Shown here one piece after another: positions 2,957 through 42,488 of a stretch of 64,000 nucleotides of DNA. The stretch lies in IMG/VR virus record IMGVR_UViG_3300029305_012082, positions 40,688-104,687 of that record; one strand, given 5' to 3'. The DNA is from a virus. Lineage: Duplodnaviria; Caudoviricetes. The position numbers and the translations under genes are program-made. Below the pieces are notes generated by a model that saw nothing but the letters and a program-made list of their open reading frames with translations, was not told where the DNA came from and did not search any database. The first letter of the stretch is position 1; every line of letters starts with the position of its first letter.

Positions 2957-3388
2957 ATGAATATTAGGTTATTCAACAAGAAATACTGGGTCAGACGTTT
3001 CGAGGAGCAACGAGAAGTTCGTGGTTATCTCGCATCCGGTTACTCGGACTTTGTTGCAGATTTGAATGTCCACCCTCTGGGGACAGATCAGGTCATGACC
3101 CTTCCTGAAGGTCAGCGAAAAATCAAACGGCTCGAAGCTCACGGCGAGATTCAACTCGTCGTCGCAGATCAAGACAGCAACAGAAAAGGCGATCTTCTAT
3201 TCTATCACGGAGAATGGTTTGAGTGCATCTCATCACAGATGTGGGATCATACGGTCTTATCTCACTATAACTATCAGTTTGTGCTTGTTCCCAGAGATGC
3301 AGCACTTTCGACGGATATCGAACACGATCCAGTAGGAATACCCGGATCTCAAAAGGAGTGTCATTGCCATGAGAGTATCTGCTGCTAA
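2957..3388 (+). CDS. Head closure / neck protein
   Basis: LPEGQR and GDLLFYHGEWFE motifs; synteny. Confidence 0.6.
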   Translation: MNIRLFNKKYWVRRFEEQREVRGYLASGYSDFVADLNVHPLGTDQVMTLPEGQRKIKRLEAHGEIQLVVADQDSNRKGDLLFYHGEWFECISSQMWDHTVLSHYNYQFVLVPRDAALSTDIEHDPVGIPGSQKECHCHESICC

Positions 3389-4121
3389 AGAACTCTTCCG
3401 GACTCTTGTGAAGAGGTATTTTCCCGGAGCTGTTGTTATTTTTGCGAACCAAAGCCGAGTAGCAAAGCCGCCGATTCCTCTTGTTGTTATAACGCCCGGA
3501 GCAGTAAGACGGAACCAAACTCCCAATTACTCAATTGTAAACGGCGTCAATGTCGGGTTCTATCATTCGAAGATCCCGATGACTATTGATCTGTTTTCTC
3601 CCGGCGATCCAATAAAGGATGACGATACAGGGCAGGTTGTTGCATACGCCAATTCTGCAGTGGACGATATGCTTAGTCTTGCAGACTATATCAACTCTCA
3701 AGATTCTGTTGAGTGGTCTCATCAGCATGACGTCAGTATGGTTATAGACGGAGATGTGCAGGATCTGACATCGATCGTTAATGATTCAAACTATGCATAC
3801 CGCTCAAGAATGGTCGTCCAGTTTTACTTCACTCAAGCAGCTGTGGGATACTCCGCTGTTCTGTCTGAAGGCAGTATCCACTATCCCACACGCATAGACG
3901 ATCCGATAACAGGAGAACCGCAATATACAGATCAAGAACCTGTTACTACGACAAGCCCGACTGGGGATTACGTTGATGAAGCAACAGAAAAAGAGCGAGA
4001 TGCGGTAATAATTCCTGTTCAAGAACAGACGCCTAGCGGAGGCGGGTCTGTTGAGCTGGCCGATAAAGAAGCCGGCTACTTCACAAATGTTGTAATCAAG
4101 GAGGAAACAGGCAATGAGTAA
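3369..4121 (+). CDS. Tail terminator / completion protein
   Basis: Immediately upstream of the sheath gene; overlaps both neighbours. Confidence 0.6.
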
Positions 4122-6952: not shown

Positions 6953-7040
6953 ACTCCTTTGTAATTAGTGGAAGCGATTTCATTTTAACAGTCTTTCTTC
7001 TGTGCGTCAATCCTCATATGGTACGAACGGTGGTGTTCTT

Positions 7041-9446
7041 ATGACCCTAGCAGAATTTATTAACGTTGTTGGCTTCAAAGTCAAAGACGGCGATATAAGT
7101 AAAGTAAACAACTCGATCAATACTATAAAAAACACAGCGCAAAAGGCTTTAGGTGCTATAGGAATATCCCTTTCGATTGCAGGGATTACGAGCGTTATAA
7201 AGGATTGTGTTTCCCTCGCGTCTGAAGCCGAGGAAATGCAAAACAAGTTTGATGTCGTGTTCCAAGGCATGAACGAAACCGTAGAGGAATGGGCGAAAAA
7301 CTACTCAGATGCAATAGGTCGAAATGCAAATGACATAAAAACCTACATGGCAGATATGCAAAATCTGGTTGTAGGTTTCATGGGAACTGATATGAGACAA
7401 GAAGCCTATGAGCTTACTCAGTCTATGACAACCCTGGCTTTAGATCTGGCATCCTTCAACAACATAGACGAGGGTATTGCTGTAAACGCAATGCAAAAGG
7501 CGGTTATGGGCGAATCGGAAGCAGCGAAAACAATCGGTGCTGTCCTCAATGATGTTACACGAGCCGAAGCTATGCATCAGCTTGGGCTTAAAGGAAAGTA
7601 CGACGCCTTGGATCAAGCGACCAAGATGATGGTCAATTACCAAGCAATTCTACTTCAAAGCACTGATGCCGTTGGAGATTGTGAACGAAGTCTTGGTTCA
7701 TACAGAAGCACCTTAATTGCATTTCAATCCAAACTCAAAGAGATTAAAACTATAGTTGGTCAATTTTTCATGCCAACTGCACAGAAAATACTCCAAATTG
7801 GCACGAAAGGACTTACCGTCGTTCGCAATTGGGTTCAGAATATAAGTGATTTTGCGGAAGAACTAGGAGGAGCGCACAGAATAATCACGATTATCGGCGG
7901 TGCTCTAGCGGGAATGTTGTTGGTACGAAACCTCGGCAAAGTAGCAGCTTTAGTGAAAGTTGTTGTCGGGCTTCTTTCTCCCGCCAAGCTTCTTATCGCT
8001 GCCATTGCTGCAGCATTTACTCTTGTGGCTCTAGTCGTAGAGGATTTCTTTGCATTTGTTCAGGGTAAAGACAGCTTGTTTGGTGATTCCTTGAAGAAAG
8101 CAGGAATTGATCTCGCCCAATTCCGCACATCTATTTTACTGTTGAAAAATCGCCTTAAAGATGCATTTGGAGGAATCAAGGATTTTGCTGGTGAAATAGG
8201 AACGGGTCTATTTAATGCGCTCCAACAAATTCTGCCGATCATTGTAGATTTCGTTGTTGCAAAAGGTCCCGGAATCATTGACATCATAAAGAAAGTTGCG
8301 CCGCTTATCGGAAATCTTGCAAGTGGCAAGCTCTCGATGCTTTTTAGTGTTGCAAAAAAATTGTTGCCCGTTGTTGCAAACGTAGCAAAGACCCTTAGCG
8401 GACATCTCGTAAACGCAATTTCGACACTTATTCCGTTCATAGGAAATCTTGCTTCCAGTCTGGGCGGATTTTTATTAGAAGCAATACAGACATTGCTGCC
8501 TCCACTGGTTGAGTTTGCGATGAGTATTCTTCCGGTGATTCTTTCGTGTGTAAACGCTATTCTGCCTGTGATTCTTGAGTTCGCACAAGCTGCACTGCCC
8601 ATAATCATAGACCTTATAAACCAGCTTCTTCCGGTTCTTCTTCAGATCATAGAGGCGGTTCTTCCTGTGTTGTTATCCTGTATAGAGCAGCTTCTTCCTA
8701 TCATTCTTCAGCTTGTTCAAGAACTACTTCCGATTATATTGGAAGTCATAATGATGATTCTGCCACTGCTGGTTCAGGTCATTGAGGCAATATTGCCGGC
8801 AATCATGTCGTTCATCGAGGAACTTCTTCCTCTTGTCAGTCCACTGATTGAGATAATTGCAAATCTAGCATCTTCTATTCTGCCTGTCATCATCACCTTG
8901 CTTGAGTCAATTTTGCCGATTCTCGAACCGATTCTCGGCATACTTCAGCCAATTGCAGATGTACTGGCTGTAATAATTGATGCTCTCGGAAAGGTTGCTG
9001 GAGGTATAGCAACAGGGATTCAATGGCTTGTTGATGCTGTGACTGGCGGTGGAAGTGACACAGACGCTTCCAGCACAGTCCCCGGATATGCTGTTGGTAC
9101 AGATTATTCAGAGGATACATTTGTCGCAGGCGAAAATGGGCCGGAACTCATAACAGGACAAAGAGGCAAAAAAGTTTTTACCGCCCTCCAAACAGGAAGT
9201 ATATTTGCTACAGCCAAGGAAGTAATATCTGCGGCGATCGCTCTGTCAAATATTAGAACAGCTCGGCCAGCAACGGCTGCAAACGTTACAAGTTCTCAAT
9301 CCACCAGAAATGTATTCCAAAATGTATCAATTAGCAATCAGTTTAATGGAGACAAGGCAATCCAGCGTCAGGCAGCTAACACCATGGGAAAATCTGCAAA
9401 TGACATAACAAGAGAGCTGGCTCGTGGATTGGCGTATGCAAGATAG
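7041..9446 (+). CDS. Tape measure protein
   Basis: About 800 aa, helical, with 11-residue LLP-periodic hydrophobic repeats and a YAVGT...AGENGPEL C-terminal motif. Confidence 0.9.
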   Translation: MTLAEFINVVGFKVKDGDISKVNNSINTIKNTAQKALGAIGISLSIAGITSVIKDCVSLASEAEEMQNKFDVVFQGMNETVEEWAKNYSDAIGRNANDIKTYMADMQNLVVGFMGTDMRQEAYELTQSMTTLALDLASFNNIDEGIAVNAMQKAVMGESEAAKTIGAVLNDVTRAEAMHQLGLKGKYDALDQATKMMVNYQAILLQSTDAVGDCERSLGSYRSTLIAFQSKLKEIKTIVGQFFMPTAQKILQIGTKGLTVVRNWVQNISDFAEELGGAHRIITIIGGALAGMLLVRNLGKVAALVKVVVGLLSPAKLLIAAIAAAFTLVALVVEDFFAFVQGKDSLFGDSLKKAGIDLAQFRTSILLLKNRLKDAFGGIKDFAGEIGTGLFNALQQILPIIVDFVVAKGPGIIDIIKKVAPLIGNLASGKLSMLFSVAKKLLPVVANVAKTLSGHLVNAISTLIPFIGNLASSLGGFLLEAIQTLLPPLVEFAMSILPVILSCVNAILPVILEFAQAALPIIIDLINQLLPVLLQIIEAVLPVLLSCIEQLLPIILQLVQELLPIILEVIMMILPLLVQVIEAILPAIMSFIEELLPLVSPLIEIIANLASSILPVIITLLESILPILEPILGILQPIADVLAVIIDALGKVAGGIATGIQWLVDAVTGGGSDTDASSTVPGYAVGTDYSEDTFVAGENGPELITGQRGKKVFTALQTGSIFATAKEVISAAIALSNIRTARPATAANVTSSQSTRNVFQNVSISNQFNGDKAIQRQAANTMGKSANDITRELARGLAYAR

Positions 9447-10604: not shown

Positions 10605-11468
10605 ATGGCAGGTCTTGAGAATTTTGATCGGCAATATCGTCTGTCTGCCGGCAAGGCCGGGGGCACAGGATTTGAGATCGGCGGAGAAAAGCCTGTTCCG
10701 CTGCACATAGATTTCTCTGTGGAAAGAACCGACCAAGAAACACAGAACACCGCCACTCTCAGCATTTGGAACCTCAATGATGCCCATTTGGCAGCTCTTG
10801 AAGAAAAAGACTGTGTTGTGGCACTTAGAGCAGGATACGGGAACCGTATGCCTCTAATTTTTTCCGGAATCGTAACTCAAGCAGTAACTTCGAATGATGG
10901 CGCAGACAGAAAAACTGAGCTTGACATAGTAGACAACCTTGTGGAGATCCGAGACACCTATGTAAGCCTCTCGTACAACGGGACTGTCAATTGGAAAACA
11001 ATTTTTGATGATGTTTCTTCCCAGATGGGTGTCGCCATCTCCTACTCCTACAATGCCGAGTTTGTCGATATTCCGAATGGATTTAGCTTTGTTGGTATGG
11101 CTAGAGACATAATGACCAAGGGCTGCGCTTGCTGCGGTCTTGTTTGGAGTCTCCAGAATGGGGTCATGCAAGTGAAAAAGCCCGGGGATGTAATGTCCAA
11201 GGAAGTCTATGTTCTGTCCCCGGAAACTGGACTGCTTGGTATTCCCGCCCGAATCACGGAAGCGTCCGACAAGTCTGACGAAAAAAATACAATCGGCTGG
11301 GATGTCGAGTATTTTATGAACGGCGCAATCAACATAGATGACTATGTTAAGCTTGAGAGCAAAATGGTGACTGGGTATTTCCGCGTCTATTCGTTAAGCA
11401 TTTCTGGCGATAATGTTTCTGGCGACTGGATATGCAAGGCCCGACTGAAAGAGGTGAAGGAATCATGA
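10605..11468 (+). CDS. Baseplate hub protein
   Basis: NTATLSIWNL, LRAGY, WSLQNG and LSPETGL motifs. Confidence 0.8.
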   Translation: MAGLENFDRQYRLSAGKAGGTGFEIGGEKPVPLHIDFSVERTDQETQNTATLSIWNLNDAHLAALEEKDCVVALRAGYGNRMPLIFSGIVTQAVTSNDGADRKTELDIVDNLVEIRDTYVSLSYNGTVNWKTIFDDVSSQMGVAISYSYNAEFVDIPNGFSFVGMARDIMTKGCACCGLVWSLQNGVMQVKKPGDVMSKEVYVLSPETGLLGIPARITEASDKSDEKNTIGWDVEYFMNGAINIDDYVKLESKMVTGYFRVYSLSISGDNVSGDWICKARLKEVKES

Positions 11469-12200: not shown

Positions 12201-12557
12201 ATGATGGCCGATATTAGGTTGAACAAAGATGGCGATATCGACGTGTCGAAGACAGGTGACATCTACCTCACAAACAGCGTTCGACAGGCGATCCTGATTA
12301 AATTGAGATGGATTTATGGCGAATGGCGGCTCGGTCCAGAATTAGGTTTCCCTTGGTTTGAACAGGTCTTCATTAAGAACCCGAACACAGATGCGATCAA
12401 GGGTTTACTTCGAGAAAAGATCCTTCAGGTAGAAGGAGTAGATGCGGCGATTGTAACAGAGGTCGAATATAGCCGTGAAAAAAGATCTGCAACCTTCCGC
12501 TACACCGTAACGGTAGGGGAGGAAGTGTTCAAGGAAGAGGTGACGCTTTATGAGTGA
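12201..12557 (+). CDS. Baseplate wedge / sheath initiator (gp25-like)
   Basis: RQAILIKLRWIYGEW...GFPW motif. Confidence 0.75.
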   Translation: MMADIRLNKDGDIDVSKTGDIYLTNSVRQAILIKLRWIYGEWRLGPELGFPWFEQVFIKNPNTDAIKGLLREKILQVEGVDAAIVTEVEYSREKRSATFRYTVTVGEEVFKEEVTLYE

Positions 12558-13992
12558 ATATGGGCTTACACCGAAAGGGCCGAATATCAAAAGACTTGAT
12601 GAGATCATTGAGTCCTTGCATAAGAACCTCTCAGAGCGGTGGGGTGTCAATACCCGTCAGAACCCCGAGTCTCTGATAAATCATGTTTTGACAAATGTTG
12701 CCGATCAGATCGCAGAATTGTGGGAGTTTGGAGAGAGTGTTTATTATTCTCAGTATCCTGCCACAGCGGAAGGCATCAATCTGGATAATGCTGCTCAGTA
12801 CGGCGGCTCCACGAGAGAGCCGGCGGCGAAATCCTATTACCCCATCCACTGCACAGGCAAAGATGGAACGGTCCTTGCAGCAGGAACGATCATTGCCTCT
12901 ACCACGAATCCGACAACACAGCTGTCTCTTGCCGAGAGCCGGACCATATCGAGATCTGCTTTCAATAAAGCTGCGATAAAAGTGGCATCCCTGCAAACGG
13001 GAAATCCGTACATAGTAATCATCAACAACAAAGACTACCGGCATACAGCTGGAACCCTCAGTGCTCTTGAAATTCTGAATGGGTTGGCCGAAGAAATGGG
13101 CAATGACTTCACCGTCAGCGTAGATACCGAGAACGAGCTGCTGAATATCGAAGCTGACGCAGGAACAACAAACGACTTGACTCTTTCAGAGAATCTGACC
13201 ACAGAAACCGTCACATCAATCATCACGTTCGGCACTGTCGAAACAGGAAACATTCTGCTTCCGGACGGAGTCATTACGAATATCGTAAAGGCAGATGCCG
13301 GCCTCCAAAGCGTTGTAAATGTCAGCGGCTACATTGCGGGACGAGATGAAGAAAGTGACGCAGAGTTCCGGATGTCATATGCAGATAAGATTTTCAACCG
13401 ATCCAAGACAATGCTTGACACCATACGCAGTGCGATTTTGAACAACGTACAAGGCGTCGCTAGTGTTGCTACATACGAGAACGATAGCGACATTACCGAC
13501 GAATATGGCCGTCCCCCTCACAGCATCGAAATCGTTGTTGATGGAGGAGACAACTACGAAATTGCACAGCAAATATTCGCAAACAAAGCCGCAGGCATTT
13601 CCACACATGGAAATGAAGAAGTGACTATAGTAGGTTCCTATGATGAAAATTTCACTATCAAGTTCAGCCGCCCCGAGATTGTCTATGTGTGGTTCCATCT
13701 GAAATTGGAGCGAAATTCTTCTCAGAGCATTCCGGACAATTACGAAGAACTACTGCGATCGGTTGTAACAAAAAATATGGAGAATTTGGACGCAGGAACC
13801 GATGTGGTTCCCATGCGCTTCATGACCGAACTTTACGATGCTTTCTCAGGCATCAACTACATCGACATTACATTGACAGCAACCTCGAACAAAGAAAAAC
13901 CGAGCGTGTACACAGCTCGAAGCCAAGCAATTACAGCTAGACAGAGAGCCTTCACCAGCGAAGACATGATAACGGTGGATTTCTATGAGTAA
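12550..13992 (+). CDS. Baseplate J-like wedge protein
   Basis: TAEGINLD, GRDEESDAEFR and PPHSIEIVVDGG motifs. Confidence 0.85.
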   Translation: MSEYGLTPKGPNIKRLDEIIESLHKNLSERWGVNTRQNPESLINHVLTNVADQIAELWEFGESVYYSQYPATAEGINLDNAAQYGGSTREPAAKSYYPIHCTGKDGTVLAAGTIIASTTNPTTQLSLAESRTISRSAFNKAAIKVASLQTGNPYIVIINNKDYRHTAGTLSALEILNGLAEEMGNDFTVSVDTENELLNIEADAGTTNDLTLSENLTTETVTSIITFGTVETGNILLPDGVITNIVKADAGLQSVVNVSGYIAGRDEESDAEFRMSYADKIFNRSKTMLDTIRSAILNNVQGVASVATYENDSDITDEYGRPPHSIEIVVDGGDNYEIAQQIFANKAAGISTHGNEEVTIVGSYDENFTIKFSRPEIVYVWFHLKLERNSSQSIPDNYEELLRSVVTKNMENLDAGTDVVPMRFMTELYDAFSGINYIDITLTATSNKEKPSVYTARSQAITARQRAFTSEDMITVDFYE

Positions 13993-14647
13993 TAGATATG
14001 TTGTAAATCTCCAAAGTGATCTGCTTGAGCAATTTCGAGGAAAGCCGAATATCGAGGCTCTTGTTGAGGTAATTGGCGTTGAACTCCAAGAAGTGTATGA
14101 TTTTTTCTCTCAACTCCTGATCGAGCGAGACATCAAGGTCGCAGTCGGAAAACAGCTGGACGGAATAGGCAGCATTGCAGACATGACCCGCAGCGAGGCG
14201 ATTGCTCTTGCAAGAGACGCCAATTACCCCTATACCGATGAAGATGAGATGTATCGAGTATTCCTACTCTACAAAATCTTCGTCAACACGGCAAAGGGGA
14301 CATATGCCGATGTTCTAAGATCCATCCACATGTTATGGGAAGGAACACTGACATATGAGGAGGATGCAACAGTTCCTGCGACCATTATCCTGAATTTTGA
14401 GCGGTTTAATGGGCTTGATATTCAGAGACTTCTAAAGGTGCCCATTGTCAAACCTGCAGGCGTTAGAATTCTTTTCCGAGCCACTGGTCGAAAGGATCAT
14501 TCTTTCTATACTGCAGGAACAATCACACATAGCAAAAGAATAACCTACACCCAAGAAGAATACGACTTCTCTATCCCTGACATCCTCGTAGACGAAGACC
14601 AAAACCTTCTTCTTGATGAAAATGGTAATATCCTAACCGAAGGCTGA
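13985..14647 (+). CDS. Baseplate wedge protein (DUF2612-like)
   Basis: AVGKQLDGIG, D..YR.FL and KPAGV motifs. Confidence 0.75.
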   Translation: MSNRYVVNLQSDLLEQFRGKPNIEALVEVIGVELQEVYDFFSQLLIERDIKVAVGKQLDGIGSIADMTRSEAIALARDANYPYTDEDEMYRVFLLYKIFVNTAKGTYADVLRSIHMLWEGTLTYEEDATVPATIILNFERFNGLDIQRLLKVPIVKPAGVRILFRATGRKDHSFYTAGTITHSKRITYTQEEYDFSIPDILVDEDQNLLLDENGNILTEG

Positions 14648-14664: not shown

Positions 14665-15726
14665 ATGTCCATATTCGTTGAAACTACCGACAGTGGCATC
14701 GGCTTGATGGTTCAGGCCCTGTTTGGAGACGCCACTATAGAGTTTACAAGGTTTGAATTCGGGAATGGGGACGTCCCCTCTGAACCCGAAAAGATGACCG
14801 AACTGGGCAACAAAATCTTTGAAAGCCCCGTTGTTGGTGAAATTGTTAAAGGCGAAAACTATGTCGATGTAGCAACGAAATTCGACAACAGAAATGTATC
14901 GCACGATTTCACTCTCACGGAAATTGGAGTATTTGCTATCGATGTGGGCACTCAGGAAGAGGTGATGTTTGCTTACATTCATCTCGGCGACCAAGGCGAA
15001 CCTGTTCTTAGCACTGCGGCAAATAAACTGGTTGAGAATGAGATTGTCGTTCGTATCATTATCGACAAAGCCATAAACGTTACTGCTTCGGTTGCATCCA
15101 CCATGTATGCATATCAAAAGGACTTTGATGACCACTTGAAAGACTACGACAATCCGCACAAGGTCACAAAAGCACAAATTGGGCTTGGTGAAGTTCCGAA
15201 TACGCATCCCAAAGACACAGAGATTAAATTTACAGAAGCACAGGAAATCGGAAATATAATGTCAGGAGATACGATCGGAACTGTCTTCGGAAAAATTGCG
15301 GCTGCAATCAGAGCTTTGATTGCCCACATCGCAAACAAAAACAACCCGCATCAGATTACGCCCATGTCTATTGGTGCTGCTGGAGAAGGACACTCACACG
15401 CAACTTCCGACATTAAAACCGGCGTGCTTACTGTTTTGAGAGGTGGCACAGGGAAGAACAACTGGATAGCCAACAGAATTCTTTTCGCTGCTGCAAGCGA
15501 TGAACTCGGCCAAATCAAGAATCCTGACAAAAAGTCTTTCCTCGTCCAAGGATCTAGTGGAGCACCATATTTTGAAGCCATTTCCGAGTTCGCCTTTTTC
15601 TCTACAGGAAAAGAAGCCCCTGATAGTACGAATATCTTGTGGATTGATACAACTCCTACTACCGGCGGACTTAAATACCACAACGGGACAGAATGGACAC
15701 ATGTGCCTGTTGCATATGTGCAGTAA
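14665..15726 (+). CDS. Tail fibre / collar protein (baseplate-attached)
   Basis: N-terminal TDSG...LTEIGVFA..MFAY collar domain; NPHKVTKAQIGLG and HIANKNNPHQIT fibre repeats; L.V.RGGTG motif. Confidence 0.8.
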   Translation: MSIFVETTDSGIGLMVQALFGDATIEFTRFEFGNGDVPSEPEKMTELGNKIFESPVVGEIVKGENYVDVATKFDNRNVSHDFTLTEIGVFAIDVGTQEEVMFAYIHLGDQGEPVLSTAANKLVENEIVVRIIIDKAINVTASVASTMYAYQKDFDDHLKDYDNPHKVTKAQIGLGEVPNTHPKDTEIKFTEAQEIGNIMSGDTIGTVFGKIAAAIRALIAHIANKNNPHQITPMSIGAAGEGHSHATSDIKTGVLTVLRGGTGKNNWIANRILFAAASDELGQIKNPDKKSFLVQGSSGAPYFEAISEFAFFSTGKEAPDSTNILWIDTTPTTGGLKYHNGTEWTHVPVAYVQ

Positions 15727-15735
15727 GGAGAGAAT

Positions 15736-16065
15736 ATGAAAACGCTTGTATTTGATATTCCGTATGATCTTTCCAGTTTGATAGAAATGCTCGATTATGA
15801 AACGGGAGCATTGAGAGAACTCCTTGCGTATGCAGCCTCCAAAGGGTTAGAGAACACTACTGCATATCAAAAGTGGGAACAGGACTACCACGCCACCTAC
15901 AAAGAATTCCAGATTGCAAAACAAACTCTGCAGAATGATTATCTGCCCCGTGTCGTCGAAGGAACCGTTTTGAACTGGGAGCTGACTTACTCAACCAACT
16001 CGATCGAAGTACAAGTCTGTCAATGCGAGGGGGAGCAGAATGAAGAAGCACGAGTCGTTCTCTGA
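15736..16065 (+). CDS. Putative CXXX-repeat peptide modification system accessory protein
   Basis: 109 aa helical protein ending in a W.L.Y.T..I.V strand pattern; overlaps the rSAM start. Resemblance to the TIGR04116-type family is recalled, not searched. Confidence 0.55.
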   Translation: MKTLVFDIPYDLSSLIEMLDYETGALRELLAYAASKGLENTTAYQKWEQDYHATYKEFQIAKQTLQNDYLPRVVEGTVLNWELTYSTNSIEVQVCQCEGEQNEEARVVL

Positions 16066-17359
16066 TAAGCTTGGACGGATTTATCACCCGATTGATGCCG
16101 ATGATACCTTCAAGGTAAACGATTGGAGAGCAAAAACAATCACATTTCAGATCACAGAGGAATGCAACCTGAATTGCTCCTATTGTTATCAGGGAGCGAA
16201 ATCTCGAAACAGAATGAGTTTTGAGACAGCCAAAGAAATTGTAGACACCCTTTTGGCTGCAGACAGCAGGACGAATCAATATATCACATCGGACAAAATC
16301 AGCGGTGTTATCTTGGATTTCATAGGTGGAGAGCCACTGCTCGAAGTAGATTTGATCGATCAAATCATGGACTATTTTCTGGAACAGGCGTTTTTGCTCA
16401 ATCACCCTCTGGCGACCAGATATATGATCTGTATATCTTCGAATGGCACCTTGTATTTCACAGAAAGCGTACAGAGATTTCTGGAAAAATGGGAAGGTCG
16501 AATCTCTTTTTCTGTTAGCGTTGATGGGAACAAGGAACTCCATGATTCCTGCAGAGTCTTTCCTGATGGGACTGGAAGTTATGACCTTGCAATTGCTGCA
16601 GCCAAAGACTACATGAACAAACATGGCTTCATAGGAAGTAAAATGACGATAGCTCCCGGAAATGTCATGCATGTAAGAAGTGCTGTAAACAGCCTGCTTC
16701 AGGAAGGGTATGACGAGATTTATCTGAACTGCGTTTTCGAAGAAGGGTGGGAGCTTTCTCATGCCCAAATTCTGTACAGACAGCTCAGAGGACTGGCTGA
16801 CGATTTGTTGGCTATGGAAAATCAACCCTATCTGTCCATATTTGACGAACACATCGGACACCCCATGAAGGAATCAGATAACCAAAACTGGTGCGGTGGG
16901 TGCGGAAGCATGCTTGCGGTCAATTGGAAAGGAGAATTCTTTCCTTGCCTCAGATACATGGGATCTAGCCTGAACGGAGCACAAGAGCCGTTCATAATCG
17001 GAGACCTTGAGAATGGGATTATGAATTTGCAGGAACACCGCGACAGGGTACAGGAACTCTCTGTCATCGACCGGAAGTCTCAAAGCACAGAGGAGTGCTG
17101 GAGCTGCCCCATCGCATCTGGATGTGCATGGTGTTCGGCATATAACTATCAGGTATATGGAACACCGAATAAAAGAGCGACCTTTATTTGCAAAATGCAC
17201 CAGGCTAGAGTCTTAGCAAACGCATACTACTGGAACCTGATATACAAAAAAGAAAACATAGGAACACGGTACTTGTTAGATATTCCTGCTGATTGGGCTG
17301 TCGAAATAGTTGGCGAGAACGAATACGCTATGCTCAAATCTTTGGCGGAGGAGGTGTAG
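16040..17359 (+). CDS. Radical SAM/SPASM peptide maturase (CXXX-repeat target type)
   Basis: CNLNCSYC (CxxxCxxC), FIGGEPLL and SVSVDG; SPASM cysteines WCGGCG...FFPC...CWSCPIASGCAWC...FIC. Confidence 0.9.
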   Translation: MKKHESFSDKLGRIYHPIDADDTFKVNDWRAKTITFQITEECNLNCSYCYQGAKSRNRMSFETAKEIVDTLLAADSRTNQYITSDKISGVILDFIGGEPLLEVDLIDQIMDYFLEQAFLLNHPLATRYMICISSNGTLYFTESVQRFLEKWEGRISFSVSVDGNKELHDSCRVFPDGTGSYDLAIAAAKDYMNKHGFIGSKMTIAPGNVMHVRSAVNSLLQEGYDEIYLNCVFEEGWELSHAQILYRQLRGLADDLLAMENQPYLSIFDEHIGHPMKESDNQNWCGGCGSMLAVNWKGEFFPCLRYMGSSLNGAQEPFIIGDLENGIMNLQEHRDRVQELSVIDRKSQSTEECWSCPIASGCAWCSAYNYQVYGTPNKRATFICKMHQARVLANAYYWNLIYKKENIGTRYLLDIPADWAVEIVGENEYAMLKSLAEEV

Positions 17360-17362
17360 TAG

Positions 17363-18034
17363 GTGGCATATATCGACCATGAAAGATTTCTTGATCTCAA
17401 AAAGCGAGTACGAGAAGAATGCCTCAAAAGGTGCTACACTGGATCGGTGCTGATGTATGGAAGTCAAGACTTTGACTTTGAAAACCAACCTGCGGAAGGA
17501 AATCTGATTCTTGGGGAGCATTATGAGAAAATTGCAACCCCCCTCGCTGCGATCAATTCTGACCTAGTTCCAGATTTAGATCCCAAACGAATTGTCTCCG
17601 AAGAAGAACTCGCTATGTTGGAGGCGGCAGTAACTACATTTGAGGCAGAGTCGAAAGCAAGGACAACTCCGGGTGAATGCAAATCGTCCTGCACCGGAAC
17701 CTGTTATACAGAATGCTCCGCATCATGTACCGGAAGTTGTGGTGGAAACTGTTCCGGTGGTTGTCTTACAAGCTGCAATGGGTGCGACGGATGTAGTGGC
17801 AGCTGCACCAACGTATGTTCTGGATGCACAAGTACATGCAAAACGCACTGTACTGGAGGATGCAGCGGTTCCTGCAAGGAGACCTGCACTGTTTCTTGTG
17901 GATTTAGGGGTTGCTCCGGAAGCTGTAGAAATCATTGCTACAATGGTTGCGTTTCTTCTTGCGGTGGAGGCTGCTCAACTTGTGGCAGCAACTGTTCGGG
18001 CGTTAGTCTAGTAGGAACGCAAAGCAGTCATTAA
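17363..18034 (+). CDS. Cys-rich (CxxxC)n protein, putative rSAM substrate
   Basis: GTG start 3 nt after the rSAM stop, with GGAGGT RBS; 28 Cys at mostly 4-residue spacing encoded at 17678-17995; about 105-aa non-repetitive N-terminus. Confidence 0.85.
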   Translation: MAYIDHERFLDLKKRVREECLKRCYTGSVLMYGSQDFDFENQPAEGNLILGEHYEKIATPLAAINSDLVPDLDPKRIVSEEELAMLEAAVTTFEAESKARTTPGECKSSCTGTCYTECSASCTGSCGGNCSGGCLTSCNGCDGCSGSCTNVCSGCTSTCKTHCTGGCSGSCKETCTVSCGFRGCSGSCRNHCYNGCVSSCGGGCSTCGSNCSGVSLVGTQSSH

Positions 18035-18045
18035 GAGGTGACAAC

Positions 18046-18594
18046 ATGAATATTGCATCAAAGTTTGATATAGCTGCCTTGAACCTTTTCGTGGCAGCAA
18101 GTGAGGGAACTGTTTCTACGGAACATAGAATGGAAATTTTCGAAAGCGTTGCTGGCGATCTTGACCTTATGGTCGAGGCCCTTAATGCGTTGATCGTCGG
18201 ACACAATGCTAGAGTGTACTCTGGAACGCTTTCTGCGGAGAAGGCTTTTAAGTCCATTAAAGCAGAATACAAAGCAATTGGTTTTGGAGAAATTGTTCCT
18301 TTCGATTGCATGGAAGGTCCTCTTGAGATGCTTTATTATAGAAAAAGCTCAGATGAAATAGATATGGACCACATGTTCGAGATCATCCAGAAGATGTTCC
18401 AAAAAAATGAAACCTGTCCCAACGAGAGAATTAAGTGTGGCGTATATCAGCTTGCGCTGAGAACAATTACGCACTACAACCTCGTAGCAAAGGACATAAG
18501 TTTCTCCAGACAAGTCATCGATAAAGTAAATTCCTACACACAGGAACAAAAAGATTCCGCTCTTTTGCCCCCTGCCATTGTGACAGAACTGTAG
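18046..18594 (+). CDS. Hypothetical protein, possibly part of the rSAM cassette
   Basis: GAGGTG RBS, 11 nt after the Cys-rich gene; no recognised motif. Confidence 0.7.
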   Translation: MNIASKFDIAALNLFVAASEGTVSTEHRMEIFESVAGDLDLMVEALNALIVGHNARVYSGTLSAEKAFKSIKAEYKAIGFGEIVPFDCMEGPLEMLYYRKSSDEIDMDHMFEIIQKMFQKNETCPNERIKCGVYQLALRTITHYNLVAKDISFSRQVIDKVNSYTQEQKDSALLPPAIVTEL

Positions 18595-18604
18595 GAGGTA
18601 TTCT

Positions 18605-18928
18605 ATGGCTATTGAAAAAATCACAGATAAGCCGGTGGCTGCATCGGCTGAATTGGCAGATCATATTTTGATCGTCATAGACGGAAAGCTCCGAAGGGCT
18701 ACTGTTGAAACACTGGCGGATATTTTGGTGGAAGGGCATATAGTCAAAATCAACGCTGATGTTACTTCTGCCGTCAATGAAGCGACAGAGCTTGCTGATA
18801 GAATTAGAACATCGCTGGATAACGGGGAATTCAACGGAACGCCCGGTGCTGCAGGAATTTATATCGGCAAGGACGAACCGACAGATCCTCACCATCCCGT
18901 ATGGCTGTACTATGATCCCGAAGCATGA
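18605..18928 (+). CDS. Small tail appendage protein
   Basis: GEFNGTPG and IYIGKDEP...VWL motifs typical of fibre segments. Confidence 0.6.
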   Translation: MAIEKITDKPVAASAELADHILIVIDGKLRRATVETLADILVEGHIVKINADVTSAVNEATELADRIRTSLDNGEFNGTPGAAGIYIGKDEPTDPHHPVWLYYDPEA

Positions 18929-20457: not shown

Positions 20458-21867
20458 ATGAGCAAAGACGTATTGATCGGCGAACAGACGTATTCAGGAA
20501 TAACAGACGTGCAGCTTAAAACCACAACTGGTCAAGCCGCCACGTTCAAAGATGTTGACGAGATCGTCACACCGAGCGGTGAAAAGGAAATCACAGCAAA
20601 CGGCACATACGATATCACGGGATATGCCAGCGTGGTCGTAAATATTCCGACGGAGGGTGAAGCAATGACGATTAACACAGAAGCAAGCACAACATTTGAA
20701 CTTGCAAATGGCACCGAATTCAGACGGGGAGAGGTAGCGGAACTTGTTCTTACAATCCCCGAGGAACTCCCCACAGCTTTTAGCTGTCAAGTTGCATTTA
20801 CAAGTGGTGAAAACGCAACTAGCATTACAATGCCCACAGATGTCGTAATGCAAGGCGAATCTGTGTCCAATGGAGTTTTCACACCCAAGGCCCATTATCG
20901 ATATGGTCTCATGTTCTGGTACGACGGCGAAATCGTGTGGTGTGTCATTTGTGCCGCAGCTCTGGAAGGAGCAGAAGACAATCCTGACGAAGGCGGCAGC
21001 GGAGATAATACCGGAGATGACACCGGCGATACTGGAAATACCGGAGGTTCTGGATCTGGCGGCGAAGATGATAACACCGAGATGACTGGTAGCGGAACGG
21101 AGTCTGATCCGTACATGATTGCAACTGCAGCACAGTTCGTTGCACTTGGAGAAGAAGTTGATGCCGGCGATACGAAGAGTGGAGTTTATTACGCCGTTGC
21201 AAACGACCTCGATTTGGATGGCATCGAATGGAACCCCATTGGCGCAAACTATAAGAATACCAACAGTGACACCGACAATAGCGGTAGCTTTGCCGGTACG
21301 ATTGATGGTCGTGGTCACGTCATCCGCAATATCAGCATAAACGGCATGCAGTATGCAGGTCTGTTTGGCTCGAACTTTGCCGGTACAGTAATGAACCTTG
21401 GACTTGAAGGTGGCTCCATCAGCACGACTTATGCAAGTTCCACTTGCGGTGCCATTGCACGCAAGGGTTCCGGCAAGATCGTAAATTGCTACGCACGAGT
21501 TCCCGGTCAAGCTGTTACTCGTTCGTCCGGTATCATTGATGAGATCGAAGCTGGCGGCATGGTCCTTGGCTGTTACCAAGCTGCAGCTATCAACAACGGA
21601 AATGGCTATGCGATCAAGTCTGCTACTACAACAACCGGAACAATTAAGTATTGCCTGTGGGATAGCACATTGACAGAAAAGGGTATTGCCGGGACTTCTT
21701 CTTCTGATTCCAACAATAACGGTATTACAACCGCAGAGTTTGCAACAGCTCATACAACCCTCAATAATAATCTTTCCGCTGTTGCTGCTGCGGCCGGAAT
21801 CGATGTTGCCAAGCTGTGTGCTTGGGAGGCTGGTTCTGACGGTTATCCCAGACTGGTGGTGGCGTGA
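20458..21867 (+). CDS. Tail appendage protein with a GLUG/ZmpB-like beta-helical domain
   Basis: GSGTESDPYMIATAAQF, NDLDL...WNPIG, FAGTIDGRGHVIRN and YAGLFG motifs after a G/D/S/T linker. Confidence 0.7.
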   Translation: MSKDVLIGEQTYSGITDVQLKTTTGQAATFKDVDEIVTPSGEKEITANGTYDITGYASVVVNIPTEGEAMTINTEASTTFELANGTEFRRGEVAELVLTIPEELPTAFSCQVAFTSGENATSITMPTDVVMQGESVSNGVFTPKAHYRYGLMFWYDGEIVWCVICAAALEGAEDNPDEGGSGDNTGDDTGDTGNTGGSGSGGEDDNTEMTGSGTESDPYMIATAAQFVALGEEVDAGDTKSGVYYAVANDLDLDGIEWNPIGANYKNTNSDTDNSGSFAGTIDGRGHVIRNISINGMQYAGLFGSNFAGTVMNLGLEGGSISTTYASSTCGAIARKGSGKIVNCYARVPGQAVTRSSGIIDEIEAGGMVLGCYQAAAINNGNGYAIKSATTTTGTIKYCLWDSTLTEKGIAGTSSSDSNNNGITTAEFATAHTTLNNNLSAVAAAAGIDVAKLCAWEAGSDGYPRLVVA

Positions 21868-22799
21868 TGAGTCTTACGATGAGACGATTTGCTGCAATTG
21901 CTCAACTATCGTCAGGTAGTGCAGTTGCGCCTGTTCTTCGGTACAAGCTCGGAATTATATCGGACTCTCACTCTGGATACACAAATGCAGTTCCGCATTT
22001 AACGGCAACCTTGAATACGCTTCATAATCGTGGGGCGCAAGAAATCGTCACTTGCGGAGATAGTGCTGTAAATGGTACTCAGGCAGAATGGGAGCAGTAT
22101 ATCAGCACAATCGAATCGTCCCCGTACAAGAGAACTCAAGTTCATGAGTGCAATGGCAACCACGATGGTGCCGCCCCCGATCTGACCACGTTTAAGCAGT
22201 ATTCAAACAATGGAGCTTTGGTGGGAAAAGATCCGTACTTTGCGATCGACCTGTTTGGAGATCGTTTCATTTTCTTGGCTTTCGATGTTGGAACGTCTCC
22301 CAGCGGTGGAAACTGCTTCTCAACAGCACAGCTTGATTGGCTTGAAGAAGAGCTTCAGGAGCACTACGGCAAAGGGAAGAATGTGTGGATCATTGAACAC
22401 TCTCTTTTCTATGGTTGGGGTGCTGGTGATATTATTTCCGCCCCTAGATACCCAAGAGCCTTGTCCCTTTCCTTTGATAGCCATATCCGCCTGAAATCCA
22501 TTTTGGAAGCACATCCCAAGCTTATCTTCCTCCACGGACATACGCATATTAGGCTTGAAGATGTTTCCGAAGGACTCGTTGCCCATGCACTTCCTGCGGA
22601 TGCCGGATGCAATCAGATTCACGTCCCTGCTGTTACCGCAGGTAAGTTTATTGGAGGCAGCGGCGAACCCTCGGCGGATTTTAGTATGGACCCGGAATGC
22701 TGGTACTGCGAAGTTTACACAAACAAGATTGTTTTCATCGGTCTTAACGGCAATACTGGTGAAGAAATAGCAAACGTTTCTCATACTATTGCAGTCTAA
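21864..22799 (+). CDS. Calcineurin-like metallophosphoesterase within the tail module
   Basis: All five motifs present: DSH, GD, GNHD, H and GHTH. Confidence 0.85.
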   Translation: MMSLTMRRFAAIAQLSSGSAVAPVLRYKLGIISDSHSGYTNAVPHLTATLNTLHNRGAQEIVTCGDSAVNGTQAEWEQYISTIESSPYKRTQVHECNGNHDGAAPDLTTFKQYSNNGALVGKDPYFAIDLFGDRFIFLAFDVGTSPSGGNCFSTAQLDWLEEELQEHYGKGKNVWIIEHSLFYGWGAGDIISAPRYPRALSLSFDSHIRLKSILEAHPKLIFLHGHTHIRLEDVSEGLVAHALPADAGCNQIHVPAVTAGKFIGGSGEPSADFSMDPECWYCEVYTNKIVFIGLNGNTGEEIANVSHTIAV

Positions 22800-22825
22800 G
22801 AGAAGCGAAGAGTTGAGGTGTGAAA

Positions 22826-24712
22826 ATGGCAAGATATTACGTTCGAAATCCCGACAATCCTCAGGAGTGGCTGCTTGTAGGTGGTAACGCCAAAGGGGCT
22901 GTCCTGTACAACAGACCTCAAACTCTTAGCGAAGAAGCAAAGAGCGTTGCAAGAGACAATATTGGCTCAGCTTCCAAGGCAATCGTCGGCGATCTTAAAA
23001 AACTCAACACTTCGTCAAAGAACGATTTGGTCGAAGCCATAAACGAAATTCTCAGACTTGTTGGAACAGGAGTCGGAGGAACTGTTGATCCGGAACAGAT
23101 CGAAAGAATTGTCGAGGATTATTTAGAAAATAATCCGCCCGAAGATGGTCAGGATGGTATTTCTGCAACGCATAGTTGGGAAGGTACTGTCCTGACCATG
23201 ACAAGTGCAAGCGGCACATCGAAGGTAGATCTTCAAGGCCCCAAAGGGGATGACGGAATATCACCGCACATCTACCTCGAACAGATCGATGGCGGACATA
23301 GAATCACCATTGAAGATGCTTTCGAAAGAAAAGAGTTTGTCATCAAGAACGGTTCTGACGGGCGAGATGGTGATAATGGCGCAACGCCAGAACTCAAAAT
23401 TGGCACCGTTACGACTGTATCCTACGGGGGTGAGGCAAAAGCAACAATAACGGGAACGGCAGATAAGCCGGTTCTCAACCTATGGCTTCCTTCTGGTCCC
23501 GCTGGATCTTCTTCCGAAGGGGATGACGGAAGAGAAGTTGTCCTTCGTGCTTACGGTGGTTATATCCAATGGCAATATGTTGGTGATACCACTTGGGAAA
23601 ACATTGTCGCATTGTCTGAAATATCCGGAGACGATGGTGTAGGCATCGAAAGTGTAGAGCAGACTACTACCTCTGATGAAGACGGTGGCACAAACAAAAT
23701 TGTACTGAGACTGTCCGATGGGTCTGAAACTGAAATATCAATAAAGAACGGCTCTGCAGGAACACCGGGCAGAACTCCGGTTAAAGGCGAAGACTACTTT
23801 ACCGATACAGAAAAGCAAGAGATTGCCGAAGAAGCATCAAAGCTTGTAACCATCGATCAAGTTCTCCCCACACAAGTCGTTTTCCCCGAAGGACAGACAA
23901 CGAACTTTGCCATCGGCAAGGTAAAACTGTCGAATGGTAGCGCAGAGCTTATTCCTGTAGGAGGAACACTGCAGGACTTCTTCGACAAATTGGTTGAAGA
24001 AAAGAACCCCTCTACAACTCAGCCGAAAGTAACGCTTACGTTCGATCAGGCAAAGGCTTATGAAGTTGGAACAAAAGTCACTCCTACCTATAAAGCCACC
24101 CTCAGCGCAGGTTCATACACATACGGACCCGCTACAGGAGTTGTAGCATCTGCATGGGAAGTCACTGACACCCAAAACGCTAAAAGAACAACAGCCAGCG
24201 GTAGCTTTGATGAAATCCAAATAGTTGATGATATAAGCTATAAGATTACAGCAAAAGCAACTCACAACGCAGGTGCTGTTCCTGTAACAAACCAGAAGAA
24301 CCCTTATGCCGCCGGCCAGATTAAATCCGGAACAAAAAGTGCTACCTCTGGAGCGATGACAGGATATCGAAACGTCTTCTATGGAACAAGAACAGATAAG
24401 ACAGATCTCACATCTGATAAGATCCGCGCTCTCTCTGGAAAATCCGGAAAGGCTCTATCAAATGGAAGCACATTTGTGGTTGATGTTCCTGTTGGAGCCT
24501 TGCGTGTTGTTATAGCATATCCGGCCACCCTTCAGGATATTTCTTCTGTAAAAGACGTGAACGGCATGAATGCTGAAATTGCTTCAGGTTTCTCGATGAT
24601 TACACTTGATGTTTATGGAGTTGATGGATACAAAGCCATTCCGTACAAAGTGTATATCATGGACTTTGCATCCGCAAATGACACGGCAAACACCCTTGCT
24701 GTAACAATCTAA
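22826..24712 (+). CDS. Tail fibre protein with collagen-like segments
   Basis: QGPKGDDG, GSDGRDGDNG, WQY.GD..W.N and GRTPVKGEDYFT motifs; Ig-like C-terminus. Confidence 0.75.
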   Translation: MARYYVRNPDNPQEWLLVGGNAKGAVLYNRPQTLSEEAKSVARDNIGSASKAIVGDLKKLNTSSKNDLVEAINEILRLVGTGVGGTVDPEQIERIVEDYLENNPPEDGQDGISATHSWEGTVLTMTSASGTSKVDLQGPKGDDGISPHIYLEQIDGGHRITIEDAFERKEFVIKNGSDGRDGDNGATPELKIGTVTTVSYGGEAKATITGTADKPVLNLWLPSGPAGSSSEGDDGREVVLRAYGGYIQWQYVGDTTWENIVALSEISGDDGVGIESVEQTTTSDEDGGTNKIVLRLSDGSETEISIKNGSAGTPGRTPVKGEDYFTDTEKQEIAEEASKLVTIDQVLPTQVVFPEGQTTNFAIGKVKLSNGSAELIPVGGTLQDFFDKLVEEKNPSTTQPKVTLTFDQAKAYEVGTKVTPTYKATLSAGSYTYGPATGVVASAWEVTDTQNAKRTTASGSFDEIQIVDDISYKITAKATHNAGAVPVTNQKNPYAAGQIKSGTKSATSGAMTGYRNVFYGTRTDKTDLTSDKIRALSGKSGKALSNGSTFVVDVPVGALRVVIAYPATLQDISSVKDVNGMNAEIASGFSMITLDVYGVDGYKAIPYKVYIMDFASANDTANTLAVTI

Positions 24713-40330: not shown

Positions 40331-42488
40331 ATGCGAAAACTTACCAAGAAACAAATCGAGCGGCTTGCCCTAGAAATTAGACGCTTTCTTCTGAATCGTG
40401 ACATGTGGGTTGATGTCACTATCTATTTCAACGGCAAGGCAATCAGCACAGACGACAGAAACGGGAACTTCGGATACAACGATCCGGACAAGCTTTTTAT
40501 TCTGGAAAACATGAACCCGAGGGATTACTTCTTGTATGCGGGTGATATCCTCAGCATGAGTTTTGAAGGCGACTTTTACGACGTTCTCAACTATGATTGC
40601 TGGCCTGCCGCAAAAAAACATTTCGAAGACCTTCTCTCCAAATACGGCCTGTATTATGAACTTGGCAATTCGTGGAACCTTACAGTTGCTATGAAAGGAT
40701 AGAAAAGAACATGAAAAAAAAGAAATCGTTGACCGATCTGCTTTTCAAAAAAGCTGATGATCTCGGCTGGAGCATTTATCGTGACGAATATGGAGATTTG
40801 GAATTCAGTAAACATAGCCCTTTGGGAGAAGACTTTTCGTTCTATATTGGAGGCAGAGACATCGTAAAAGAGGTTCTTGAATACTACGAATACTTCGATC
40901 CTGATGAACACTGTAAGATGTGGATTGAAGCGCAGGGGCGTGTAGCGGGGGTGCCCAGAAGTATCCGCGATCTCATTGATGATGCAGAAGCCATCGACGA
41001 GATGCTGAAAGAACTGGCTTATGCACTCATGGGTGTAGAACAGGAGCTCAGAGATGAAGATGAGGAGGGAGAGGAAGATGATTGATGCAACCAATTGCCC
41101 ACATTGCGGCAAGTTTTCGGCTCCAAGAATTCAATTTACATACGAAGGTGAGCCGTTCTGGGTTTGTCGCCATTGCGGTGTTATGATTTATGACCGCAGA
41201 TGGTACAAATATGTTGCCAAAAAGGAAGCAACAGAAATCGTGGAATACCGTGGCCGGCGGGGGTTATTTGTTCTTGATACAGGCGCTGGATACATCGGGA
41301 TCGACAACTCGACTGGAGATGCATGGTTCGAGGAGTTCCCAGATCTCTTTGAGTGCCTGATGTGGCTGGCTGGCGAAAAGGAGGCAGAAGAATGACAAAA
41401 GCAGAACTCCGTGCGGAACTGATGAAGGGCCGCGCACTGGATGACATTCTGTACTTCATCGACGGTCAGGAGTGCCTGATTTTCAAGGCTGACCGGTTCG
41501 TTCCCGGAGATGAAGTTCTGTACATCCCTGACATCGACTTGAACCAGATCCCGGTCGACCTCAACCTGAGCCGCAATAACTCGATGATGGATGAGGCGTT
41601 ACACGGTTGGGGTCCGATGACGGCAGAGGAACAGGTCACGGTCGTTCTTTCGTACTGCTACACCGGTGATGACTTCATCAAAGAGTGCGGCGGAGACGAG
41701 GAGAAGGCAAGATACCTGTTCTATTACTGCGATTGGCAGCATCCAAGCTCCGCATACCCTGAGATCTGCGAGTTGGAGGAGGTTGTATGAAGCGGTATAT
41801 TCTGAGGGCGTGGTATAAAGCAGCATACGGAAAATGGGCAATAGCCGATTTTGTAGTAACTCGTCCAACCGTTTCTCCGGAAGGAGTGTACGCCACAAGC
41901 AGAACGGCTTGGGGTGGAGAAATCCGAAATTTTTATCCGTTACATACAGTGTTGAGCTTGAAGGAGGAATGAAAACGAATGGGCAGAGGCAACGTATGTG
42001 TTTCCGACGATTTTGAGGGGCTGTACTATGTTGACAATGATTATCTTCATATTTACAGGACGACCGACACCTATCCGGGAGAACCCGAATATAAATCTAT
42101 GGGAGATCTAGATTACGAAGAAATCTGTAGTGATAATTGGGAATTCGACGAGATCCAGAGCCGAATTGAACTTGAAGACACAGAGATAAACCTTACTGCA
42201 TACTTGAAAGAACGTTTCAAAAGCTTTGTAGATTGTAAAAAATGGATAGAGCACGATCGCTATGCGCTCCTAGAAAACAACCTGTTCTACATCGCAGAGG
42301 CAGACAATCAGTGGAGCATGGCTTTTATGCTTATTCAGAAGGATCATCCTTACATGGACCTAAGCGGGCTTCAGCAGCGACATTATCAAACATATCTTGA
42401 TGGCATCAGAGACGGACTGTTCGAAATGTTCCCGACACTCGGCACCTATGCAGGCGCATGGACAAGCGGAACGATCAGACGCCAATAG
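40331..42488 (+). other. Cluster of small acidic hypothetical early genes (40331-40702, 40711-41085, 41078-41395, 41392-41790, 41787-41972, 41979-42488)
   Basis: Abutting or overlapping + strand ORFs, most with an obvious RBS. Confidence 0.65.

Follow-up and report, generated by a model that had tools for sequence, protein, structure and literature searches.

The known targets of radical S-adenosylmethionine (radical SAM) maturases with a SPASM domain are small secreted peptides and, in the case of QhpD, one enzyme subunit. PapB targets repeats of Cys-X3; QhpD is a SPASM enzyme that installs several cysteine thioether links in a protein staying in a larger complex, the small subunit of quinohemoprotein amine dehydrogenase. 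Virion assembly otherwise depends on protein folding, on proteolysis and on a small number of autocatalytic cross-links. A further system, the CXXX-repeat system, is defined by bioinformatics only, with models for the enzyme (TIGR04115) and its repeat targets (TIGR04114, TIGR04117 and PF27846), as well as TIGR04116 and TIGR04119. In the literature searched, we found no paper that characterises this system (TIGR04114-04119, PF27846) or ties it to phage tails, and none on a radical SAM/SPASM maturase acting on phage tail-module proteins. Here we analyse a four-gene cassette (positions 15736-18594) in a stretch of viral DNA of 64,000 nucleotides (nt), hereafter called the window (positions 40,688 to 104,687 of IMG/VR record IMGVR_UViG_3300029305_012082, a 104.7-kb provirus judged complete). 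The cassette encodes an enzyme of the CXXX-repeat family and a protein with a cysteine ladder. As it occupies the tail-fibre spot in almost every related phage sampled, its probable target is a protein associated with the tail and not a secreted antibiotic.

The four genes encode proteins of 109, 439, 223 and 182 amino acids (aa): a small partner, the radical SAM/SPASM maturase, the Cys-ladder protein and a helical protein. They are separated by -26, 3 and 11 nt and start 9 nt after the gene of a 353-aa tail-fibre protein (14665-15726, plus strand), which matches phrog_7037 (E 1e-23) and many other tail-fibre PHROGs; this layout, first described in an original prediction made from the sequence, was recovered to the nucleotide. 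The partner gene overlaps the start of the maturase gene by 26 nt, Shine-Dalgarno-like sequences (GGAG or GAGG) lie 6-10 nt 5' of every cassette gene start, and the gene after the cassette begins at 18605, 10 nt past the end of the 182-aa open reading frame (ORF). The original prediction had also seen no terminator in this run of genes. There is indeed no excess of terminator-like hits, promoter-like and terminator-like sites in the 11-26 kb region being no more frequent than in shuffled sequence, but a weak terminator-like hairpin (18228-18245) lies within the 182-aa ORF, the only one on the sense strand of the cassette.

The cassette resembles the CXXX-repeat system in its enzyme, which is a member of the family, in the CX3C-repeat target and in the partner of ~100 aa encoded beside the enzyme gene; it differs in that its targets are two-domain proteins (141-496 aa in the surveyed loci) in phage tail modules.

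Maturase and fibre-side position of the cassette

The second cassette gene (16040-17359, plus strand) had been read as a radical SAM/SPASM enzyme, and its product matches the CXXX-repeat maturase model TIGR04115 over the whole profile (positions 1-359 of 359) with 465.6 bits (cut-off 350; E 1.4e-139); the genome-wide profile search gave 466 bits. The score with phrog_1802 is 224 bits. Both cysteine signatures seen earlier, the CX3CX2C motif (C42, C46 and C49) and the SPASM set (C285, C303, C353, C356, C362, C365 and C384), are invariant in 23 homologues. In Pfam, the Radical_SAM domain scores 38.7 bits and the SPASM domain 21.1 bits, slightly below its cut-off of 21.5. The closest relatives of the enzyme are found in Oscillospiraceae genomes.

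The next-best families, each under its own cut-off, are PapB (NF047865, 171.2 bits against an equivalog cut-off of 340), CcpM, QhpD (TIGR03906, 112.2 bits against 453) and the SCIFF maturase (TIGR03974, 106.6 bits against 425), whereas the model of the anaerobic sulfatase maturase (anSME) gives 58 bits. These four next-best families form thioethers or mature Cys-rich peptides. By these scores, the enzyme is a relative of PapB, not an equivalog. The PapB/freyrasin system (PapB is the subject of PMC12373016) and the SCIFF/CteB system have the radical SAM core and the SPASM auxiliary-cluster cysteines in common with the cassette enzyme, but the latter scores far under their cut-offs, and their substrates are peptides of ~40-50 aa, whereas that of the cassette would be a large protein. 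The nearest solved structure is CteB (5WGG), with an alignment that begins at CteB residue 97, and the CteB segment before this residue therefore has no counterpart in the cassette enzyme; we take this segment to be the substrate-recognition domain of CteB. QhpD, although a detectable relative (112 bits), acts on Cys-Asp/Glu pairs in a periplasmic enzyme subunit and not on a repetitive ladder in a phage tail module. Judged by analogy, QhpD is the closest working analogue for cross-linking a complex-resident protein, and PapB and CteB are the closest chemical analogues.

Several radical SAM homologues are interrupted by inteins (Pfam matches to Hint, Intein_splicing and LAGLIDADG), with products of 575-782 aa; examples are L168:4320-6110, L252:2589-4937, P0038 and P0071.

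For a survey of relatives, the best 80 radical SAM loci each from IMG/VR and GTDB (160 in total) were taken, their ORFs were called and the enzymes were dereplicated at 75% identity, which yielded 62 lineages; neighbours within 9 kb of the cassette were then clustered across these lineages. The enzyme family as a whole comprises more than 3,800 clusters (90% identity) that score below E 1e-30, and pattern-based scans gave 376 matches among the 2.9 million contigs of IMG/VR and 91 among the species representatives of GTDB. The sampled relatives are 43-65% identical to the enzyme of the window, and all of those with enough flanking sequence, bar one, lie in phages or prophages. The cassette is concentrated in Clostridia, including Oscillospiraceae and Lachnospiraceae. 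Twelve public runs contain the region 14665-18594, all of them DNA faecal or gut metagenomes, with no RNA run among them.

A homologous ladder protein is encoded on the same strand within ~2 kb of the radical SAM gene in 58 of the 62 lineages. Proteins of the tail-fibre cluster, to which the tail-fibre protein of the window belongs, adjoin the cassette in 53 lineages and stand directly upstream of it in 32, with gaps mostly below 60 nt, and baseplate J is present in 28. Among the first two genes upstream, the commonest PHROG families are without exception those of tail fibre, baseplate or minor tail proteins, and the neighbour clusters have representatives with the annotations baseplate wedge, tape measure, tail protein and endolysin. 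Where lineages from bacterial genomes had at least 3 kb of upstream flank, 43 of 44 show phage tail clusters beside the cassette; the lone exception (L100) has upstream a protein with the fibre motif described below. The usual gene order is fibre, ladder protein, (a variable 165-220-aa ORF), partner, radical SAM enzyme and lysis genes; in the clade of the window it is fibre, partner, radical SAM enzyme, ladder protein, an ORF of ~180 aa and then further tail genes.

The 113 downstream neighbours are dominated by amidases, GH25 and CHAP domains and holins. The original prediction had noted that no transporter or leader peptidase is visible, and in the survey neither an ABC transporter nor a C39 peptidase is found among the top 25 Pfam families of these neighbours, where no immunity gene, protease or exporter recurs. 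The locus also departs from a classical cluster for an exported ribosomally synthesised and post-translationally modified peptide (RiPP), its precursor being a 223-aa protein with a folded 100-aa N-terminal domain and its upstream neighbours being tail proteins. The expectation that homologues would follow tail-fibre or baseplate genes was borne out in nearly all sampled viral and bacterial lineages, and no transporter or leader peptidase travels along. In this sample, the homologues are therefore neither at random positions in phages nor mainly in chromosomal bacteriocin clusters, an outcome that would have spoken against the original prediction.

The position is accompanied by a feature of the preceding protein. 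An iterated hidden Markov model (HMM) detected a motif of ~33 residues (consensus AP-N-T--LWIDT--GG-KYYNG--W--V) that ends the protein preceding the cassette in 30 of the 62 lineages, 5-8 residues from the C-terminus; in the window, it covers residues 315-347 of the tail-fibre protein (15607-15705, plus strand). Apart from this motif, its carriers are unrelated, with lengths between 56 and 974 aa. In the converse test, a degenerate DNA pattern of the motif was scanned over IMG/VR. Of the distinct motif proteins with 3 kb or more of sequence downstream, 26 in number, 14 precede the cassette and 12 do not. The cassette is strongly enriched after motif proteins; for comparison, radical SAM relatives turned up in only 376 stretches of the 2.9 million contigs.

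Twelve motif proteins are followed by neither a radical SAM gene nor a ladder ORF over the next 6 kb (or over the available stretch, where shorter); they are those of L172, L173, L175, L176, L180, L182, L189, L219, L223, L233, L238 and L248.

Ladder protein, partner and fourth gene

The Cys-ladder protein (17363-18034, plus strand, GTG start) is composed of an N-terminal domain of ~100 aa (N-domain; 17363-17662, plus strand) and a cysteine ladder (residues 106-211; 17678-17995, plus strand) that matches phrog_6085. Its cysteine-rich C-terminal part had been recognised in the original prediction; 28 of the 30 cysteines of the protein fall within the ladder, spaced as CX3C (23 times), CX2C (four times) and CX4C (once). 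Between the cysteines, 61 family members have mainly Gly (30%), Ser (26%) and Thr (15%), with only 3% Asp. The TIGR04114 repeat model finds four stretches in the ladder, the best with 15.9 bits against a cut-off of 20, and TIGR04117 matches the protein at E 1.2 (cut-off 50 bits). Among 60 ladder family members, TIGR04114 matches seven and TIGR04117 six at E < 0.01, and precomputed tables assign PF27846 to relatives of the ladder, fused ones included.

The ladder segment is modelled with low confidence by AlphaFold2, whose model of the N-domain is helical (predicted local distance difference test, pLDDT, 80-96). The N-domain (residues 1-100) is conserved in at least 26 lineages, its HMM matches ladder proteins only, and a BFVD search returned uncharacterised phage homologues only. 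Resemblances of the N-domain to a LonA N-terminal fragment (Z 6.0) and to TssK of the type VI secretion system (Z 4.3-4.8) were rejected, as values of this size are no more than noise for helical models. Four lineages have, just 5' of the cassette, a protein of 141-189 aa that fails the screen for Cys-rich proteins and clusters with the ladder proteins (L092:8242-8712, L098:8368-8793, L103:8330-8797 and L112:8545-9114); it may be a paralogue limited to the N-domain, or the grouping may result from ORF calls that overlap.

The small partner (15736-16065, plus strand) has homologues inside the cassettes of 36 of the 62 lineages, mostly immediately before the radical SAM gene. Its AlphaFold2 model (pLDDT 90.8) comprises a strand, a long helical hairpin and a beta-hairpin. 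The partner might be a PqqD-like recognition element; the Foldseek comparison of its model with the PDB, which gave no match at E 0.001 or better, speaks neither for nor against this. TIGR04116 (90 positions) has no match in the genome of the window even at E 10, and among 34 partner homologues it matches one, weakly (E 0.005); the like size of the partner and its place beside the radical SAM gene suggest an analogue or a very distant relative of the TIGR04116 protein. Of the TIGR04114/04115/04116 system that the original prediction had named, the enzyme passes TIGR04115, the partner has no TIGR04116 match and the ladder stays below the TIGR04114 cut-off, although its CX3C periodicity is plain to see. 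TIGR04119 (CXXX_matur) likewise has no match in the genome of the window at E 10; four of five related host genomes contain weak matches only, in open frames of 449-502 aa outside the studied cassettes.

The fourth gene (18046-18594, plus strand) encodes a 182-aa protein without a Pfam, NCBIfam or PHROG match, and its Atlas model is helical with a weak TPR-like resemblance only. Sequence similarity was detected in L008 only; 182-aa ORFs occupy the equivalent place in L011, L012 and others of the closest clade, and L253 has a 180-aa ORF there, a positional match only. The cassettes of other lineages contain a fast-evolving ORF of 165-220 aa with undetectable similarity to the 182-aa protein and little among themselves. 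The description as a four-gene cassette is thus correct for the window, but the conserved unit consists of the ladder protein, the partner of ~110 aa and the radical SAM enzyme, the 182-aa gene being limited to the clade of the window.

The ladder also occurs in fused form. Ten clusters (50% identity) of 1,461-1,803-aa proteins have the ladder as their C-terminal 400-650 residues, extending to the last residue, and do not contain the N-domain. All three of these giants that were scanned with Pfam contain Listeria-Bacteroides (Flg_new) repeats, and when the parts outside the ladder were scanned against PHROG in fused and long ladder proteins, phrog_6085 (the ladder family) was the sole hit. One fused giant is encoded by a phage with a T4-type portal; two more giants with Flg_new repeats are encoded next to it, and a radical SAM gene with an intein lies two genes away.

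SPN3US-type phages are regarded as virulent. In one of them, Salmonella phage SEGD1, small ladder ORFs precede two radical SAM genes beside a putative virion structural protein, a set that we consider a distant analogue of the cassette. In the SEGD1 record (Enterobacteria phage, KU726251.1; L251:3284-3920), the coding sequences SEGD1_gp170 and gp169 seem to have been called in frames other than those of the ladder ORFs; a 134-aa ladder ORF (3497-3901) is unannotated and a further ladder ORF starts at 3917, both upstream of the two annotated radical SAM genes.

Proposed role and competing explanations

On balance, we lean towards a combined explanation, in which a tail-fibre-associated protein is cross-linked enzymatically, probably through thioether bonds; we infer here both the chemistry and the place in the virion. 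An enzyme-matured, fibre-associated protein fits best because the enzyme is paired with the ladder, because the cassette keeps a near-universal position beside the fibre gene across very different tail modules, and because it is translationally coupled within the tail operon of the window. The association with the fibre motif, the fused forms, in which a fibre-sized body replaces the N-domain, and the lack of export or cleavage machinery argue in the same direction. A thioether chemistry is suggested by the thioether-forming relatives of the enzyme, and the presence of the ladder protein in the virion by the position of its gene, the association with the fibre motif and the fused forms.

The cassette would then be a conserved accessory module of the tail-fibre region of phages, made up of the enzyme, a translationally coupled partner and a two-domain substrate, the ladder protein, and would be made alongside the tail proteins during late gene expression in an anaerobic host. 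The partner, judging by gene coupling only, may stand in for the N-terminal region that is present in CteB and absent from the cassette enzyme. Via a 5'-deoxyadenosyl radical, the enzyme would install many intramolecular sulfur-to-carbon (thioether) links along the ladder, by which a flexible Gly/Ser/Thr/Cys tract would become a rigid segment resistant to proteases and reduction. The matured ladder protein would join the distal tail fibre, its N-domain possibly docking on the C-terminal motif of the preceding fibre protein, and would act there as part of the fibre tip or as an appendage instead of being released as a peptide. In its most general form, which we put forward tentatively and with slightly more doubt than trust, the proposal is that in many phages of anaerobic gut Firmicutes and, distantly, in some giant enterobacterial phages, a radical SAM enzyme ties up a cysteine ladder through dozens of thioether bridges; the outcome would be a rigid fibre-tip appendage, proof against proteases and redox change, which is either docked by the N-domain on the fibre motif or fused to giant fibre proteins.

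Several observations weigh against this explanation. Position alone is no proof of a structural role, because in most lineages the cassette lies where fibre and lysis genes meet, and temperate phages have cargo genes at this site too; the ~100-aa N-domain would equally suit a long RiPP leader. Our preference is therefore a reserved one and four other explanations are kept. The fibre motif is not dedicated to the cassette, since 12 of the 26 motif proteins have none downstream. The Cys-Asp acceptor logic of PapB is not transferable to a ladder made up mostly of Gly, Ser and Thr, and with so few of the Asp/Glu acceptors that PapB and QhpD use, the acceptor atom is not predictable. Structural comparisons gave no informative relative of the partner (no Foldseek match in the PDB at E 0.001 or better) and no convincing one of the N-domain (best VIA-align Z 6.0, to a LonA N-terminal fragment). 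No isolated phage with the exact cassette was found in the phage collection, where the nearest hits are unannotated faecal contigs; megablast of the 12-24 kb part of the window against this collection gave no match.

If the N-domain were a long leader and the ladder the core, perhaps separated by host proteases, the cassette could yield a RiPP-like product that is freed at lysis and acts outside the cell, for the population of phages or lysogens, as a bacteriocin, a signal or a metal binder. The enzyme family has the name of a peptide maturase and has relatives among the ranthipeptide and sactipeptide enzymes, the leader-plus-core layout is like that of RiPP precursors, and lysis could replace an exporter, the cassette usually lying just before the lysis genes. 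We nevertheless consider such a product unlikely: the substrates have 141-496 aa, and up to ~1,800 aa when fused, some with Flg_new repeats; no protease, exporter or immunity gene is recurrent; the cassette is tied to the slot after the fibre gene and to the fibre C-terminal motif across very different tail modules; and the window has it within the tail module rather than at the end of that module. The same slot is the classic place of fibre assembly proteins. Lambda Tfa, Mu U' and P2 G are fibre assembly proteins encoded after the fibre genes, and systems of the lambda Tfa, Mu U' and T4 gp38 type share with the cassette the post-fibre position, to which the fast-evolving accompanying ORFs may be added; they differ in that no similarity in sequence or fold to the cassette proteins was detected and, to our knowledge, none of them involves an enzyme-installed modification. 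The cross-linked ladder protein or the whole cassette could accordingly be a scaffold or chaperone for fibre assembly that is discarded afterwards, which would agree with the frequent 165-220-aa ORF and with the association with the fibre motif. The ladder at the C-terminus of giant proteins, some with adhesin-type repeats, suits a permanent part better, however, and an enzyme-matured, heavily cross-linked chaperone has no precedent, so that we hold a discarded helper to be less likely still.

Further down in probability is a different chemistry, with the ladder as a metal or iron-sulfur array or as the target of another Cys-directed radical reaction (formylglycine formation as in anSME, epimerisation or methylation). 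Regular CX3C/CX2C arrays do resemble metal-binding motifs, anSME and other SPASM families match the enzyme at lower scores, and the ladder has few of the Asp/Glu acceptors that are typical for PapB and QhpD; yet the best-scoring characterised relatives are thioether formers (PapB, 171 bits; QhpD, 112; SCIFF maturase, 107) as against 58 bits for anSME, and the nearest solved structure is that of CteB. Least probable, and quite improbable in our view, is a cargo (moron) expressed from the prophage for the lysogen, in superinfection exclusion, defence, or redox or metal handling, at a site that it merely occupies because it is permissive. Temperate Firmicutes phages commonly carry cargo at the fibre/lysis junction, where the cassette usually lies, and the source record is classed as a provirus, but the cassette genes share the orientation of the tail genes and are coupled to them in translation, promoter-like and terminator-like sites are not in excess, the cassette is conserved beside the fibre in at least 62 divergent lineages, and analogous sets occur in the phage with the T4-type portal and in SEGD1.

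Should an enzyme-matured, fibre-associated protein be correct, virion assembly would include an enzyme-installed covalent modification, and the post-translational modifications that enzymes make on virion proteins would have a new class; the 'CXXX-repeat peptide' system of the catalogues would be recast as a phage structural system, and 'RiPP clusters' from genome mining could in fact be prophage tail modules. Given the concentration in Clostridia and the faecal runs that contain the DNA of the window, the cassette could bear on host recognition or on particle survival in the anaerobic gut. With three genes, an obvious candidate substrate and cultured lysogens, it is a tractable test case; cultured hosts of the cassette are Neglectibacter timonensis SN17 (L094), Desnuesiella massiliensis (L096), Eubacterium pyruvativorans i6 (L098), Anaerolentibacter hominis (L115), Anaerobacterium chartisolvens DSM 27016 (L125) and Vallitalea maricola (L129).

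Surrounding tail module and other features

The phage tail context given for the cassette was confirmed by PHROG matches, with tail genes upstream and tail-like proteins downstream. The upstream genes encode a tail terminator (3369-4121), a tape measure protein (7002-9446), a baseplate hub (10605-11468), baseplate wedge J (12550-13992) and a further baseplate protein (13985-14647), and an example of the downstream tail-like proteins is encoded at 22820-24712. As judged from these gene assignments, the surroundings of the cassette are the contractile-tail module of a prophage. A metallophosphoesterase-like gene (21864-22799; phrog_1649, E 6e-6) lies among the tail-like genes 3' of the cassette.

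Two antisense ORFs, at 15857-16861 (minus strand, 334 aa) and 20494-21753 (minus strand, 419 aa, 43 cysteines), were rejected as spurious, because the sense genes at these places have strong family matches or conserved homologues; they look like by-products of composition. Long antisense ORFs also mislead simple longest-ORF gene calling in several of the surveyed loci.

Five of the 62 lineages have a reverse transcriptase gene (phrog_1423, E 1e-101) no more than a few kb from the cassette, and the window is without one. The five genes are located at L015:15896-17122, L083:17728-18849, L106:17450-18754, L159:13909-15336 (minus strand) and L165:5841-6914, and they suggest the presence of diversity-generating retroelements in the same fibre region.

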